Origin: Octopus vulgaris
Lineage: Eukaryota
DNA length: 64,000 nucleotides
Assembly: GCA_951406725.2 (NCBI GenBank)
Contig: OX597826.1
Location: 40,796,001-40,860,000, forward strand
Direction: 5' to 3'
The notes below the pieces were generated by a model. The model saw only the letters and a list, made by a program, of their open reading frames with translations. It was not told the DNA's origin and made no database searches. Positions 1 through 50,723 of this stretch are shown here, piece by piece. The position numbers and the translations under genes were made by a program. Each line of letters begins with the position of its first letter. Position 1 is the stretch's first letter.

Positions 1-20
1 TATAGATGTAGGTACGTACA

Positions 21-73
<53 letters not shown>

Positions 74-302
74 TAATAAATAAAATATATGCATACATAC
101 AAACATATATGTACGTACCGACATCTACATGTATATATACATGCATATATAAATATATATAAGTACAGGACACCACAAAAAGACGTAAAACTCAACAGAA
201 ACGAAAACGGAAAAGCCATTTTGTTACAACAGAAGGACAGAGACGTGGAACAGGACGAAAACGGGAAAAACATTATGTACAACAGAAAAACGAGGTACAG
301 GA

Positions 303-425
303 AAAATTCCCTTCATCAGCTGTCACTAGCAGACATAGCGTGTTTCGAAGGCAAGACAGGACACGTCTGGTCATGCTAGGCCTTCCTACGAGAGAATTAA
401 AATAAAATAACCTCGCAGAGGGGTA
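303..425 (-). ncRNA. Candidate non-circularly permuted hammerhead ribozyme, copy 1 (core intact, GUC site)
   Basis: Minus strand reads ctagcatgac-caga-CGTG-TC-CTGTC-ttgc-CTTC-GAAA-CACG-ctat-gtctgctag-t-GACAG-CTGATGA-A-GGGA. Stem III CGTG/CACG, stem I CTGTC/GACAG, weak stem II GGG/TTC, extra helix ctagca(t)gac/gtctgctag. Predicted cut between 360 and 359. Confidence 0.65.
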
Positions 426-1024
426 AAACAAGCAAGAAAAAATGTAACACAAAAAGGGACGTAACAGAGAACTGCACAATAAAATACAAGAAAAAAATAC
501 AAAATTAAAGATATATGTACAAGAAAATACAAAACGAGAAATAAATTACAATACGAGAAATCAAAATAAACAAGAGAACAACGAAAAAGACCAACGGAAG
601 GCCTTTGTTCTGGCAGGGACGGAAGAGGTAACTGGCGAGCGCTGGGAAACATGACCTTAGGGCCTGAAGGCAACGTACGAAAGGATTAGCAGTGACGAAA
701 GTGAGGAGGAGTGGGAGAGAGAGAGAGACAGATAGAGGAAGACACGCGGCTGAGAGAAGGGTGAGGAAGAGGGAGAGAGAGAAAGAGAGAGGGGAAGGCA
801 AAGCAAAGGGAGAGAATTTTCGCGTCATAATATTAAACTATAAAACAAACTGAGAGGATAGAGACGGAACGAAGTGAAAATTCGAAAAATCGAAAATTCA
901 AACGAACCCGACGCGAGGACAGCACAAATAAACGTAGAACACAACGAGAAACGAAAACATAAAAACAAACTAGGAAACGGACTTTTTTTAACAACGAAAA
1001 AACAGAGTACAAGACAAACAATAC

Positions 1025-1155
1025 AAGGAATATTCTCCTTCATCAGCTGTCCCTGGTTCGACTCAATGCGTGTTTCGAAGGTAAGGACAGAACACGATCC
1101 GGTCGAAATAGTCCTTCCTGCAAAAGAATTAAATAAAATTCTTTTGCAGAGGGGT
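1025..1155 (-). ncRNA. Candidate non-circularly permuted hammerhead ribozyme, copy 2 (core intact, GUU site)
   Basis: Minus strand reads ttcgac-cggat-CGTG-TT-CTGTCC-ttac-CTTC-GAAA-CACG-cattga-gtcgaa-ccag-GGACAG-CTGATGA-A-GGAG. It is preceded by a perfect 13-bp hairpin (1118-1149, ctgcaaaagaatt/aattcttttgcag). Confidence 0.65.
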
Positions 1156-1723
1156 AAAACAAGGAAAGAAAAAAAGTGACAAGAACAGGACGTAAAAGCA
1201 ATACAAATAAAAATACAGTACACATAAAGAATAAAAACAGGACAATGAAACCAACATTGAGGGCTTTTTTTAAGCCTAGACAATGGAAAAATTCGGAGCG
1301 CAATTTAGAATCGACTTTCTAGAGACAGAAAAAGTCGATGTTGACTTGCAGAAAGCTACGAGCAAAAGAAAGATAGTAGTCCACTCAGCAGAGAGAGAGA
1401 TGAGGAGGAGTGAGAGAGAGAGAGGAAAGGAAACCAGAAAGGGTGAAAAATAAGGAGAGATACAGGTAGAGAGGAAGACAGACAGGAAGGAAAGGTCAAG
1501 TAAAGGGTTAGAGAGTGCGCGTCAATGCACATATATATGTCTATACATATATATGTGTGTGTATATGTATACGGACATTTATACACGCGCGCTCGCGCAC
1601 ACATACACACACGAGTAAGCACACAAATGCAAATCAAGAGAGAAACAAATATTACTCGAATACCTACGGTTAAGTAATATAGTTTTTTTTACTAAAGCGA
1701 CAAAAACAGCAGAAGAGTTTCAC

Positions 1724-1818
1724 GTTTGCGTTCGTCAGACAGCCGTGATCAAGACTGGAATAAAATTTTATTCTTGATCACCACTCCGTCGAACGAGAAC
1801 GTGAAACTCTGAGTCACA
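1724..1818. repeat. Short foldback made of two partial minimal type I hammerhead motifs (PLE-like junction)
   Basis: Left half on minus: ctgt-CTGACGA-acg-caaa-cgt-GAAA-ctc. Right half on plus: ccgtcga-acg-agaa-cgt-GAAA-ctc-t-gag-TC-acag. Joined by the inverted repeat gtgatcaaga...tcttgatcac. Confidence 0.55.
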
Positions 1819-2580
1819 GATTCTTGTGATGTTTCTGCAGCTGTAATTTTAAAAATGTGTGTGTATGTATGTATGTATGTATGTATGTATGTATGTATGT
1901 ATGTATGTATGTGTGTAGGTAGGTAGGTAGGTATGTATGTATGCATGCATCTATGTATATATAGATAGATAGTTATACACACACACATATATATATATAT
2001 ACATATATATATATACATATATATATACACATATAAAAACATATATATATATATGCATATATACATACAAATATATACATACATATATATATACATACAT
2101 ACATACATACATATATATATATACGTATAGTGTAATTATTCCGCTATATGTATATGCAAGTGTATATATATATACATATATGTATTGTTTATACTATTAC
2201 TTAACTGAACGTCACGCATCCATTTCTAAGTAAATTTATCTCAATCTTTTTGATGCAACTCTATACTGTTTTCTCCCCTTCACCGTTTTCTCTCTCTCTC
2301 TCTCCCCACCCTTTCTCTTTTCTCTCTGTCGTTGTTCACACGTGACCATGGCCCATCATTCTTTTTCTCACGTGATCATCTTTCTTTTCCTTCAGGACTG
2401 GACATATTCTACCTCTCTCTTCTATCTTTTCTCATTTCAAAGAAAATATTTCTCCAGCGTTCGCTATTTTACACTCGTTTTGTTCTAACGACACTCTATG
2501 TTTATTTTCGTTCGGTTTCCCTGTATGTGTCTGCCGTCCTGTTTTTGTTTCCCTGTATGTGTCTGCCGTCCTGTTTTTGA

Positions 2581-2705
2581 CCCTCCATAAATCCAAAATT
2601 ATATTTTGGTACCTATGGGAGCAACTGTCTTCGAAAACTCATATTGTCGTTCAGTGCTCAAAATAAGGAGTATATAGACAGCCGACAACTAATGAAGGGT
2701 TGTTC
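2581..2705 (+). ncRNA. Decayed copy 3 of the permuted hammerhead motif
   Basis: ctgtct-tcgaaa-ACTCA-TA-TTGTCG-ttcagt-GCTC-aAAA-TaagGAGT-atat-agacag-c-CGACAA-CTaATGA-A-GGGT. Same strand order and same upstream CCCTC+hairpin as copies 1 and 2, but different helix sequences. Two core G>A changes. Confidence 0.5.
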
Positions 2706-4131
2706 TTTGTGAATGTTAAGGTGTCGGCTTATTTTGATAGCTTATTATAACCATTACTACCCAATTGGTACTCATTCAGTCAGGGCCGTTCCTACCGAGT
2801 TGGAATAACACTACACTTCTCGGGCAACCTCTGCACAGTAAAAATTGATATGGTACGAGAGGACCAGTGACGATGGTGGGAGAAGGAAAGAAAAGCTAAG
2901 GACATGGGAAGAAAAGAAAGGGAAGAAAAAGAAGGGGAAAAAAAGAAAAGAAAATGAGAGAAAGGGAAAGATTTGCGACGAGCTACAGCAGAGCATAAGG
3001 GAGTGGAGAAGATATGAAGTAAATACTAGACCATAATGAGATGTATACGTTAGGAAGCCCGGATGTTATTCAGGGGTCACCGATGTCTAGACACATTGAA
3101 TTTGGAACAGGAATATGCTTTAAAAATCTTGCAACTTAATGAATAAACAAGAAAATTCGCAATATGTAAACAAGAAGAGAGAGTTTTATCTAGAACATTT
3201 CAACTTTCCAAAGGCACACAAGTTACATTTGCTGTAGTACTACTCGTCATTTGACAGTTTTATCCATTTGGATGACGGGTTTCCAATTCCTTACACTTCC
3301 AACAACCAAATATATTTTGACAATGAGGCTGAAATTCATTTAATCCTGTCTAATATATATGATAAATTCATTTCCTTCCCAGGCATGTATTGCTGAGGAA
3401 ACAATTGGCTGTTTTACCTATGGTTGCATTCTCACTTGGATTCCTTCATACTGTTTCTAGCTACTTTATTGTGGATAAATATCTAGGACCTTGTGTTACT
3501 CAGGCAATTAAAGGCAGTTATAAATTATGTCACTGAATCTTTATTTATCTACGAGAATCCTGTGATGAGCATAATAGGTTTTCGAGAGCGACAAACTCAC
3601 ATACATTCATAATCATTTTGTACTATCCTACCAACATAGAAATTTTGGGTTACAACCAAGTTGTCAGTTGTGTCACATTGGCAAACTGTTTAATTTATTA
3701 AAGAATTCTGAATGTTTAGATGTAAGTTCTGAGCTTTGTCATCGCGTAAACACAGTCCCAACTCGTTATTATCAACTATAAATTTTTAAAGTCTAGCACT
3801 TAAGCAATTATTGGCAACAACAGGATTTCGCCTCCATCTTTTACATTCCTACTTCCGTTTTAAGAAAAATCCTTCTCTAAAACTTGTTTTTCTTTAAACA
3901 TTTAAACTATTTCCCTTGCACGTATCATACATTTTAGATATGATTTTCTATCCTTGTCCTCGTATACTATTCATTCATATTTTTATTCATATACACCCTT
4001 CAAAAGCAATTTATTTCCATTTTCTATGTCTACGTATTTTATTTCTCCCAACCCTTTTTTCAATATGTCCTTCAAAAGAGCGGTTACTATGTGTCAAAGA
4101 ATTAAGGCCAAAAAGCAGTCAAACAAGACTT

Positions 4132-24142: not shown

Positions 24143-24225
24143 GGTCCCGGGTTGATTCGGGGTTAACCACAGTAAGTAAGGTACTCAATACATAGCAGAG
24201 TAAAATTAATTTATTATATAGAAGG

Positions 24226-24276
24226 AGCTTCTACAGGACTAGTACTGTTTCATTCAAGAGAAATCTTCAGGAAGCT
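24226..24276 (-). ncRNA. Type I hammerhead ribozyme motif (left arm)
   Basis: Reverse complement of 28162-28212. Confidence 0.65.
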
Positions 24277-24668
24277 ATTTAACAAGAATTGTATTAGCAT
24301 TTATACATTTAGGCAGGTTTAAAGGAGTGGTGGTGGGGGACTTTTTGGGGGTAGGCATAGCGCAAAATATCATACTTGGGGGAGTGGTCAAGGAGTCAGT
24401 GGTAAGTTAGATGAAAGAATAGATAAATAAAAAAATAAAAAAATAAAAAATAAAAAAATAAAAAAATAAAATAAAAAAATAAAAAAATAAAAAATATAAA
24501 AAATATATATAAAAAAATATATATATAAAATATATATATAAAAAAATATATATATAAAAAAAGGGGGGATAGAGTTATAGGTAAATAAGGAGATTCTCAC
24601 TTATACCTATACACACATGTATACGTATCTACACACACATACATACATACACATATATATACACACAC

Positions 24669-27738: not shown

Positions 27739-28161
27739 ATATATATGTGTATGTATGTATGTGTGTGTAGATACGTATACATGTGTGTATAGGTATAAGT
27801 GAGAATCTCCTTATTTACCTATAACTCTATCCCCCCTTTTTTTATATATATATATTTTTTTATATATATATTTTATATATATATTTTTTTATATATATAT
27901 ATTTTTTTATATTTTTTATATTTTTATTTTTTATTATTTTTTTTATTTTTTTATTTTTTTATTTTTTTTTTTTATTTTATTTTTATTTTTTATTTTTTTT
28001 TTATTTTTTATTTATCTATTCTTTCATCTAACTTACCACTGACTCCTTGACCACTCCCCCAAGTATGATATTTTGCGCTATGCCTACCCCCAAAAAGTCC
28101 CCCACCACCACTCCTTTAAACCTGCCTAAATGTATAAATGCTAATACAATTCTTGTTAAAT

Positions 28162-28212
28162 AGCTTCCTGAAGATTTCTCTTGAATGAAACAGTACTAGT
28201 CCTGTAGAAGCT
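28162..28212 (+). ncRNA. Type I hammerhead ribozyme motif (right arm)
   Basis: AGCTTC-CTGAAGA-t-TTC-tctt-GAA-t-GAAA-CAG-tactagtc-CTG-TA-GAAGCT: 6-bp stem I, GUA site, U.U at 10.1:11.1, AATAAA about 10 nt downstream. Confidence 0.65.
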
Positions 28213-47838: not shown

Positions 47839-50723
47839 GGGCAAATCGAAGTGAAGTTGATACCCCCGTCAACGATGCTATCTCTGATGCCCTTTATTCT
47901 GCTTGTTCCCCAACTCCCGCCCCTCAGACTTCACAGCTCAGCATCGTCTACACCAACTCGTGCTCCTTATTCCCAAAGTTCAGTGAACTATTTACACTGG
48001 CCCTACGCGACTCCCCTGATGTGATAGCTATCACCGAGACTTGGCTGACTCCAGCAGTAAAGGACTCAGAGATCCACCTGCAGGGCTACGTCCTTTTCAG
48101 ATGTGACAGAGGAAAAAGGCGAGGTGGAGGTGTTGCTGTGTATGTTAAGTCTGAGCACAAACCGTCCTGCGGTATTCTACCCACAAATGCTCAACCTACA
48201 ACCAAATTCGATGCCGTCTATTGCAAGCTGAGCCTATCTGAGTTTTGCCTGCCCGTGTTGGCTGTCTACAGGCCGCCTCTAGCCGACCCCCAGGACGATG
48301 CTCATCTACTCGAAGCGATAAGATTCGTTTCAGCTTCGCATGACTGCTTGGTACTAGACGACTTCAACGCTCCCACGATCGATTGGCCCGCATCAATTTG
48401 TACAACATCTTCCCGGTTCGGCCAGGCCCTTCTTGACGTGGCTGAAGATTGTTTTCTATCGCAACATGTTGAATATCCGACAAGGCATCGGTCTGGGCAG
48501 CAGCCATCTATGCTAGATCTGGTATTCTCCCGCTATCCAAGATCAGTGTCAGACGTATCTGTGTGCGCCCCTCTTGCCAAGAGTGATCATGCGGTCCTGA
48601 AGTTCGTCATGCACACAACTTTTTCCACGCCCATGATTACTTCGCTGCCACGTAGAGTCTTCTCTGCAATTAATCTTGAAATTCTAACCGAGGCTTCCGC
48701 ACTTCTGGACTGGCGTTCCCTGATGACGTTGTCCTCAGTTGACGAACTATGGTCATCCCTCAAAGCATATGTAATCTGTTTGACTGACCAGGCAGTTCCC
48801 GTTGGACTTCCCAAGAGGAAGAAACACAAGCCCTGGGTGACGAAGAAGGTTAAACGAGAACGTCGACTCAGAGATATTGCTTGGGCTGAATTCAAAAATC
48901 TGGATTCGACTGCAGCTTTTGAGGTGTACAAAACTCAACGAGACCGAGCCGTGAAAATTGAAAAGAAAGAACGCTTCAGTTATGAATACAAAATCGCGGC
49001 AAATGCCAGTAGCAATCCAAAAACCTGCTTTGCCTATGTCCAGCGGAATTCCCGCTTGAACAACCAGATTGCAACGTTGGTAGACTCAACAGGCGTATCG
49101 ATTGAGGACCCTTATCAACAGAGTCAATTATTTGCCGAGGCTTTTTCAACTATTTTCAAACAAGATGATGGTCGTGAACCCCCTCCATTTGACAGATCGA
49201 TACCTCCAATGCTTCGATTGATCATCACGCGGGACCAAGTCAAACGTATTATTCAAGGCCTCGATGTCAACAAGGGTCACGGCCCTGACGGCATACACCC
49301 ACGGGTTATCAAAGCGTTGGCTCCGGTCATCTGCCAGCCCTTAACACGACTATTCAATATGTCATTGGCGACGGGTGTTATACCTGCAGACTGGAGAACA
49401 GCGATAATCTGCCCAATTTTCAAGAAAGGGAGCCGCGAAGACCCGCTTAACTACCGACCGGTTTCCCTTACATCAATAATCAGCAAGATGTTCGAAACCA
49501 TCCTTAAGAAAAGTATGATGCTCCACCTCCTAAACACAGCCTCGATCACTGATTCCCAACACGGCTTCGTGCCGAAGAGATCATGCTTGACCAACTTACT
49601 AGTAATGGAAGAATTGGTGACGCGCATCCTCGATGATAGTGATGCTGTTGACATCGTTTTATTGGACTTTGCCAAAGCTTTTGACTCGGTAAACCACCGC
49701 CTACTACTTGTCAAGCTTCAAGCATATAGTTTCCATCCGGATATTGTACGATGGGTTGGTGCCTTCCTCTCAGATCGCTCCTTCTAAGTTCAAGTTAATG
49801 GTTCGCGGTCCGACGTCTCCAGTGCGAGCAGTGGCGTGCCTCAAGGTTCAGTGCTTGGGCCCTTGTTGTTCTTAGTCTTCATAAATGACTTGCCCGACGA
49901 CCTCACGCAACACACCCTTCTATTTGCCGACGATATCAAACTGGTCGCTCCTCGCGGTAGTATAGAGGATCTTCGTCGATGCCTCCACCAAATTTGGAAG
50001 TGGTCTAACGATTGGGACCTGTGTCTGAACGTGTCAAAGTGCTGTCATCTGCCTGTCGGCTCTACTCCTGCAACTCAACTTGATTTCGAGCCGGGTCGTC
50101 TGCTGCTGGAGAGGACCGATCAGGTAAAGGACCTGGGTATCTTGGTGGATTCCTCCTTTTCGCCTTCGGCCCAGTGCGTCCATGCTGCCAACAAAGCGCG
50201 CGGAATTCTGTTTTTGATTCGACGGTCATTCGGAATGCTCACAGCAGCCATATTCCTGCCACTCTATGTCACGCTGGTGAGACCCATATTGGAGTATGGG
50301 ATTCAAGCCTCTTCTCCTTATCTCCTCAAAGACATACAGCACCTCGAAAGAGTCCAGAGGCTGGCTACCCGCATGGTTCATGGTCTCAAAAATGTGTCCT
50401 ACGAAGAAAGGCTGAGGACGCTCGACCTTTGTTCTCTTGAAAAACGCCGCCGCCGTGGTGATCTCATTCTCGCCCACAACATCATAAGCGGGAAGTGTAA
50501 CCTCTCGAAAGAGCTGTTCTTCACTCCTGCTCCGGAGCGTCGGCTGCGGGGTCATTCCGAAAAGCTCTACCTGCGACGATTTCATCTCAATCGAAGGAGA
50601 GGAGCTTTCTCCGTCCGGGTTGCGGATCCGTGGAACAAGCTGCCAGACGAGATGGTGAAGATGCCGACGACCGCTTTGTTCAAAGCCTCCCTGGACCTCA
50701 AGTGGCCTGAACTCTTTACATGA
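47835..50723 (+). pseudogene. LINE ORF2 (AP endonuclease + reverse transcriptase) with one in-frame TAA at 49785-49787
   Basis: APE motifs YTN, AITETWL, DFN, LDL, SDH; RT motifs GPDGI, YRPVSLTS, QHGF, DFAKAFDSV, GVPQGSVLGP, FADD, KDLG. ORFs 47835 and 49836 are in the same frame (2001 nt apart). Confidence 0.95.

Follow-up and report, generated by a model that had tools for sequence, protein, structure and literature searches.

We analyzed a stretch of 64,000 nucleotides from Octopus vulgaris (GenBank assembly GCA_951406725.2, contig OX597826.1, positions 40,796,001 to 40,860,000 of the forward strand), hereafter referred to as the window. Near its start are three units of a non-coding Penelope-like repeat, each of which contains a copy of a candidate hammerhead ribozyme. 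The features are listed below, where a and a' are the strands of the proposed stem II, b and x those of a further helix, H is a hairpin and P4 is an additional helix.

20..70, no strand: (TA)n target run at the 3' end of the F1 unit; relatives have the same end
64..916, minus strand: complete unit of the non-coding Penelope-like repeat (subfamily F1) with a (TA)n end; 92% to locus L012 over 871 bases
309..423, minus strand: ribozyme copy 1, intact core; an equally good score in 0 of 200 shuffles of the region upstream
Copy 1, upstream parts (minus strand): x 423-419; hairpin H 418-386; stem II strand a 385-380 (G10.1 at 385)
Copy 1, helices (minus strand): P4 379-374 with 331-326; stem III 365-361 with 343-339; stem I 359-355 with 324-320
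Copy 1, core (minus strand): predicted cut 360/359; a' 352-347; GAAA 346-343; CTGATGA 319-313; b 312-309
916..1524, minus strand: 5'-truncated unit, subfamily F2, head to tail with the F1 unit; 87.5% to locus L041 over 624 bases
1035..1154, minus strand: ribozyme copy 2, intact core; 2 of 200 shuffles score as well
Copy 2, upstream parts (minus strand): x 1154-1150; H 1149-1118; a 1117-1113
Copy 2, helices (minus strand): P4 1107-1102 with 1062-1057; stem III 1096-1092 with 1073-1069; stem I 1090-1085 with 1052-1047
Copy 2, core (minus strand): predicted cut 1091/1090; a' 1081-1077; GAAA 1076-1073; CTGATGA 1046-1040; b 1039-1035
2170..2711, plus strand: older unit, subfamily F3, ending just past the ribozyme; its start, within (TA)n, is approximate
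2578..2702, plus strand: ribozyme copy 3, dead core; 0 of 200 shuffles give as good an upstream junction
Copy 3, upstream parts (plus strand): x 2578-2584; H 2585-2618; a 2619-2623
Copy 3, helices (plus strand): P4 2625-2630 with 2676-2681; stem I 2644-2649 with 2683-2688; site 2643/2644
Copy 3, core (plus strand): a' 2655-2659; AAAA 2660-2663 (G12A); CTAATGA 2689-2695 (G5A); b 2696-2702

An initial annotation, made from the sequence alone, had described hammerhead cores at these three places in which the strand with the UH cleavage site comes first, the GAAA strand second and the CUGANGA strand last (C-B-A in its lettering). Our analyses confirmed this order at all three places, together with stems I and III, P4 and the sites 360/359 and 1091/1090. 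The motif is indeed a hammerhead-type fold with a block order outside types I, II and III, it lies in a cephalopod-type repeat, and, as had been foreseen, descriptors of types I to III miss it: Rfam models at the gathering threshold gave 0 matches in the window. Other details had to be revised. The three copies had been treated as alike; this holds for copies 1 and 2, which have intact cores, but the core of copy 3 is lost through G5A (CTAATGA, position 2691), G12A (AAAA for GAAA, 2660) and a broken stem III (2665). The GGAG assigned to stem II of copy 2 is a private change, as its family has GGGG, and instead of the ACTC/GAGT given for stem III of copy 3, family 3 has CTCA/TGAG next to the core. 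Finally, the motif begins 5' of the helices that had been noted and includes x and H.

From 5' to 3', the elements follow each other in the order x, H, a (beginning with G10.1), P4, stem III, UH site, stem I, a linker of 2-5 nt, a' (ending with C11.1), GAAA, III', P4', I', CUGANGA and b. Strand b, after CUGANGA, pairs with the upstream strand x (only 3 bp in copy 2, where a private change has shortened the helix), and H occupies the gap between x and a without a spare base. Strand a lies about 35 nt upstream of the cut. The sequence of a' changes among subfamilies (CCTTC, TGCTC, CGTTC, GGTGTC), and that of a changes alongside (GAAGG, GAGCA, GAACG, GACACC). In the initial annotation, stem II followed CUGAUGA after an extra A between A9 and G10.1. 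The strands proposed can pair, but weakly and with many G-U pairs, and the same strand has a better partner upstream: the calculated energies are -8.7 to -12.1 kcal/mol for a/a' and -1.5 to -5.6 kcal/mol for the canonical stem II. This version of stem II, and the extra A with it, are probably wrong. The first pair after A9 occurs as A-T, T-A, C-G and G-C in metagenomic loci with the same layout and their relatives (see below), and because it takes all four Watson-Crick forms the "extra A" is probably the first base of helix b/x instead. With the CUGAUGA block itself split in this way, the RNA would be more unusual than was initially proposed.

Helices I, II (a/a'), III, P4, H and b/x are established by covariation. 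Using the 2.8-Gb assembly that contains the window, we aligned 26 copies by sequence alone, leaving out four copies from Naiad elements (see below) that were misaligned by MAFFT, and compared them with this split-core model. Without counting P4, 94.7% of the cells were paired and two-sided changes were found at 13 of the 24 pairs, while controls with slid strands reached 39-45%; kinship alone, it should be noted, can beat shuffle controls. Stem II (a/a') was 97.7% paired, with covariation at three of its five pairs. A family alignment had been proposed in the initial annotation as a check of the stems, and stems I and III did covary (97.7% and 94.6% paired, with compensatory changes and the A15.1-U16.1 pair in place). 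The closing pair G10.1-C11.1, formed via the upstream strand, is G-C in 24 of the 26 copies and also in five clean strict metagenome matches, for which the C was not required. P4 has 6-10 bp in the families of this genome.

The block order, which the initial annotation took to be undescribed, has been published. According to the parts of the article available to us, Eckert et al. (2023; PMC10085705) divided the hammerhead into blocks C, G and S, and found type SGC, with the order site, GAAA, CUGANGA that we see here, and validated it by cleavage and stem rescue. Their SGC set holds 583 sequences (HRIMA-1 and variants); the blocks were assumed to be uninterruptible, and only GCS-1 was found in the genome of a known organism. 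Type SGC has CUGAUGA(U)G joined directly to stem II, whereas here G10.1 is provided by an upstream strand, and b/x and H are inserted after A9. A stem II strand within 0-2 nt of CUGANGA, as type SGC demands, is weakly pairable in the window families and absent from all eight of the metagenome relatives. The CUGAUGAAG of the window copies would be missed by the SGC descriptors because, as given in the same source, these need CUGAUGAG or CUGAUGAUG. Type CSG (CSG-1 and CSG-2) belongs to the same non-circular block cycle but, unlike the split core, keeps the CUGANGA-stem II block unbroken; the accessible text describes these two examples, both metagenomic, and names no host element. We found CSG in sister Naiads (L339-L343 and three nematode entries). 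The classical types I, II and III are circular permutations of C-G-S, not of the S-G-C met here. The underlying fold appears to be a further, undescribed variant of a published block order.

One extra base is present between A9 and G10.1 in the hammerhead of chrysanthemum chlorotic mottle viroid, and the catalytic groups lie outside the A9-G10.1 link. The backbone at this position tolerates one inserted base (De la Pena and Flores 2001, as cited in PMC4209133, of which we had part of the text). In such hammerheads a single unpaired base is inserted, while in the split core the same place holds two helices and the ends of the RNA.

The repeat family is abundant in the O. vulgaris assembly. The 16-letter gapped pattern TCGAAA-N20..34-CTGATGAAGG gave 5,334 exact matches (2653+2681), compared with 6 (4+2) for the reversed pattern that served as control; 93 of 98 distinct matches that we inspected belong to the family and five do not. 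Similarity searches with copies 1, 2 and 3 gave 1342, 2905 and 1964 candidates, respectively, which are not copy numbers, and both core motifs were kept in 29/30, 27/30 and 18/30 of the relatives. The units are about 0.75-1.0 kb long, non-autonomous and non-coding. Most copies are single and 5'-truncated, and some relatives form dimers with spacings of 752, 898 and 985. Relatives of the F1 unit are truncated at the 5' end, occur as partial tandems, contain inverted 5' pieces and terminate in (TA)n. We consider the units Penelope-like because of these marks, which (with (TA)n as the target) are all those expected of insertion in the manner of Naiads, a group of Penelope-like elements. An open reading frame (ORF) with N-terminal GIY-YIG and reverse transcriptase (RT) is absent from the window units, although elements with the related ribozyme do have it, and local tblastn found no RT similarity at loci with the extra A. 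Thus, the window units share (TA)n, 5' truncation, partial tandems and inverted 5' pieces with the Naiads, as far as these are described in the available part of PMC8557442, and the Naiad of the octopus genome shares the ribozyme layout, but the units encode no protein: they work like non-autonomous partners of Naiads and are not Naiads themselves. Likewise non-coding, ribozyme-bearing and derived from or mobilised by Penelope-like elements are the non-LTR (long terminal repeat) retrozymes (Cervera and de la Pena 2020, PMC7229834; Li et al. 2026, 10.64898/2026.07.22.740005; both available in part). Those, however, have type I hammerheads in tandem arrays, whereas the window family consists mostly of single 5'-truncated copies with another topology; in the portion of the 2026 preprint at hand, only type I models were used.

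In six family members (L094, L098, L132, L211, L212 and L285), an inversion junction interrupts the ribozyme, in most cases at a point between the cut site and GAAA; in L212, one junction is at a' and one at x. At four of the pattern matches outside the family (L093, L115, L122 and L127), CUGAUGA is followed by a hairpin and GAAAC, and their sequences look like those of ordinary type I hammerheads that belong to a different Penelope-like family of this genome. C-terminal GIY-YIG pieces lie near several copies (L002:143-679, minus strand; L023:2443-3129, minus strand; also L044, L012, L056, L071, L087 and L088). Those ORFs beside family copies (L002, L023) were considered as partners of the units and ruled out, as they share no boundary with them; the pieces come from other Penelope-like elements and probably share (TA)n targets.

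Naiads target (TA)n, and canonical hammerheads were reported as missing from them (Craig et al. 2021, PMC8557442, part of the text); eight Naiad entries, Naiad_Ovul among them, are marked there only as "HHR_half_core". We searched the regions downstream of Naiad RT genes in the octopus assembly and found a split-core ribozyme on the same strand at 18 of 30 loci. Eight of 20 weaker RT matches were also followed by a ribozyme; in these, T is the first base of b and A the last base of x. A pattern fitting the Naiad ribozyme gave 714 matches in this genome and two for its control. Here the canonical stem II is only 2 bp long. The RT fragment of this Naiad scores below the cut-off of Pfam RVT_1. 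In the published consensus entries (PMC8557442, the part of the supplement available), we recognized the split-core layout by eye in the 3' ends of Naiad_Obim, Naiad_Ovul, three coral entries, one further entry and Naiad_EuTe, and type CSG in three nematode entries. Eight loci (L420, L429, L434, L435, L438, L163, L166 and L170) represent a second, older Naiad family of the octopus genome with an extra-T ribozyme, in which b/x has up to 7 bp. The short extra-A units may be linked to the Naiads on account of the shared fold and insertion pattern.

The octopus copies alone do not distinguish the two versions of stem II, and the deciding comparison was made with other organisms. Using full-length Naiad-type proteins as queries, we collected 80 metagenome loci and screened them with a strict descriptor that covers all block orders. 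This gave six split-core and three CSG matches, all of them in sense and none in antisense; the split-core match in L412, which is inside an ORF, is probably false. Among the 54 loci with at least 200 nt past the RT match, eight have a split-core and five a CSG ribozyme (one of the latter cut by the contig end), of which three and two, respectively, came from reading by eye. The canonical stem II is 0-1 bp in all eight split-core loci, and a/a' has 5-6 bp, H 4-10 bp and b/x 4-12 bp; in each of them, P4 (7-11 bp) directly follows strand a. Five of the junctions have no unpaired base, and those of L346, L362 and L380 have one or two. With the region upstream shuffled, 0-2 of 200 sequences were as good as the real one for seven of the loci, and 17 of 200 for L346. 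A GIY-YIG motif is N-terminal to the RT in five of the eight. The CSG hammerheads are in the 3' untranslated region (UTR) of Naiad-like elements, at L339:3480, L340:2930, L341:3642 (with a short stem I), L342:2792 and L343:3433 (the one cut by the contig end). Rfam at the gathering threshold gave 0 matches in 18 of the metagenome loci, and the search of viral contigs revealed no Naiad relative.

In a quick RT tree of 76 rows, from which we claim no order of events, all 13 ribozyme-bearing loci and three octopus RTs are in one clade of 34 rows (SH-like approximate likelihood ratio test, SH-aLRT, 99). Within it, the CSG elements are in a clade of nine rows (support 97), and the split-core elements and the octopus RTs in one of 25 rows (88). 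In the other Naiad-like clade (42 rows, e.g. L356, L371, L375, L382, L388 and L405), the 3' regions are without a hammerhead, and Rfam matched none of the tested loci.

We mapped the 5' ends of 90 copies that were selected with a pattern lying 3' of the ribozyme. The 5' ends of 22 copies (among them one low-score alignment, L295) fall at -1 to +23 of the predicted cut, 15 in -120 to -2 and six in +24 to +55, and 62 of the 90 copies read through the site. The accumulation just behind the predicted cut could be an indirect sign of cleavage. In a separate set, picked by a different pattern, 14 of 93 have their 5' ends at +5 to +14. The motif is located 70-330 nt from the 3' end of the element.

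These sequence comparisons make it likely that the short non-autonomous Penelope-like repeats and the autonomous Naiads contain a self-cleaving hammerhead of a new topology. More specifically, with a probability of about two in three, it would be an active hammerhead whose core is built from four strands via a four-way junction at A9/G10.1, outside the six permutations, which together with CSG would constitute the ribozyme of an entire branch of Naiads across animals, and which may clamp the template while cutting. The fold would be obtained when the SGC/CSG/GCS cycle of Eckert et al. is closed and then re-opened between A9 and G10.1, which would give exactly the order observed; P4 would correspond to the helix by which stems I and II are joined in their scheme. 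In the model, stacking of b/x on H and of stem II on the core would yield a perfect four-way junction. Its strands would cross from A9 to b and from H to G10.1, at the place where natural hammerheads tolerate one extra base. Cleavage after UH in an upstream partial copy could release the RNA of the element from read-through transcripts. At the 3' copy, the pieces might be held together after the cut by more than 20 bp (stems II and III, P4 and b/x), or rejoining might be favoured, so that reverse transcription would mostly pass an uncut or rejoined 3' site and often stop just behind a cut one. The short units would be mobilised by the Naiad proteins.

Several observations weigh against this interpretation. 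The accumulation of 5' ends is spread over about 20 nt instead of being at the cut itself, and it could reflect stalling of the RT on the structure. In the extra-A families, the canonical stem II is still 94.2% paired (4 bp, mostly G-U, with covariation at one of four pairs), strand a can also pair downstream at about -10 kcal/mol, and minimum-energy folds, which cannot show pseudoknots, do not contain the active core. Neither motif is present in 41 of the 54 metagenome 3' regions, and the Naiad_Esco consensus (as far as the supplement of PMC8557442 was available) has stems I and III and no stem II. The link between the units and the Naiads also has gaps: an extra-A ribozyme was found in sense behind the RT at 0 of 50 loci (30 + 20), and we found no DNA similarity between the short units and the Naiad 3' UTR. 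Furthermore, strands a and x were found by maximising pairing, which biases the metagenome pair table; the automatic parser missed x and the interrupted H, identified by eye, in two octopus Naiad copies (71 and 102 of 200 shuffles were as good); and the clade that unites split-core and octopus RTs has a support of only 88.

Two of these points, the pairable canonical stem II and the downstream partner of a, which exists for all three window copies and six subfamily consensuses, would fit an unlikely alternative, namely that the active form in the octopus genome is an ordinary type SGC ribozyme with one extra A. The pairings a/a' and b/x would then form a silencing conformation, and the switch would occur by strand exchange, in which a pairs downstream and b with a'. 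Published SGC oligonucleotides carry an extra U at this place, for which the SGC descriptor allows (PMC10085705, in the part at hand). However, the canonical stem II is far weaker than a/a' over the energy ranges given above, it dwindles to 2 bp in the octopus Naiad and to 0-1 bp in eight of eight metagenome loci with a perfect core, and the base considered extra covaries with the last base of x in all four combinations. The pairing of a with a downstream stretch had itself been considered as part of the fold ("P0") and was dropped once x, H and a/a' were seen; it survives only in this strand-exchange scheme.

Less likely again is that the conserved fold no longer cuts, or does so only with a protein, and is a binding or priming signal for the Naiad RT, with the 5' ends marking stalling on the knot. 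The read-through copies, the scatter of 5' ends over +3 to +23 and a motif so close to the 3' end, where cutting would endanger priming, are in line with this, as is the poor cleavage in vitro of many hammerheads of Penelope-like elements (PMC4209133, the part seen). On the other hand, the catalytic core bases and UH are all kept across families whose helices have fully turned over, and sister Naiads carry CSG, a form shown to cleave (PMC10085705, same part). Moreover, few 5' ends are at the 3' edge of the structure, the first expected stall point (the six in +24 to +55). Chance pairing in a decayed repeat, without any selected RNA structure, would suit the dead copy 3 and the fact that kinship alone lets related copies pass shuffle controls, but is highly improbable, being contradicted by the cross-family covariation and by the recurrence of six helices with zero- to two-base junctions in divergent elements and unrelated contigs, on the sense strand only.

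In the literature, we found "type-SGC" only in Eckert et al. (2023), and no report of a hammerhead split at A9/G10.1 or of permuted hammerheads in Naiads, although an earlier report is possible. No such break appears in the accessible parts of PMC7229834, PMC3088659, PMC13725137, PMC10162972, PMC4209133, PMC6765202, PMC6155905 and PMC2632901. The available text of PMC13725137 cites "variants containing additional helices" to PMID 26167874, which may be an earlier account of such an insertion. The tie of permuted hammerheads to Naiads is new within the literature searched. If the four-strand model is correct, selection can maintain the best-studied small ribozyme even when it is opened within the catalytic core, contrary to the assumption that underlies the scheme of six permutations. 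Non-circular permutations would move from orphan metatranscriptome contigs to animal genomes, with thousands of copies in this one, and type CSG would gain a named host element. The apparent lack of hammerheads in Naiads would have a candidate answer, in that the descriptors sought the wrong order, and a natural four-way junction at A9/G10.1 would offer a new site for attaching sensors to engineered ribozymes.

Some further features of the window were observed. At position 916, the F2 and F1 units join exactly head to tail, which suggests insertion at each other's ends or a template switch. Just ahead of its 3' end, at about 64-150, the F1 unit has a self-complementary TA-rich stretch, which could imitate the (TA)n target; a similar inverted stretch is present in the flank left of the window. 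Positions 24154-24394 (minus strand) and 28078-28207 (plus strand), about 4 kb from each other, form an inverted duplication in which at least 130 bases are identical. Finally, the region at about 50300-50450 reads, as an impression only, like the end of an ORF of the LINE (long interspersed nuclear element) type.

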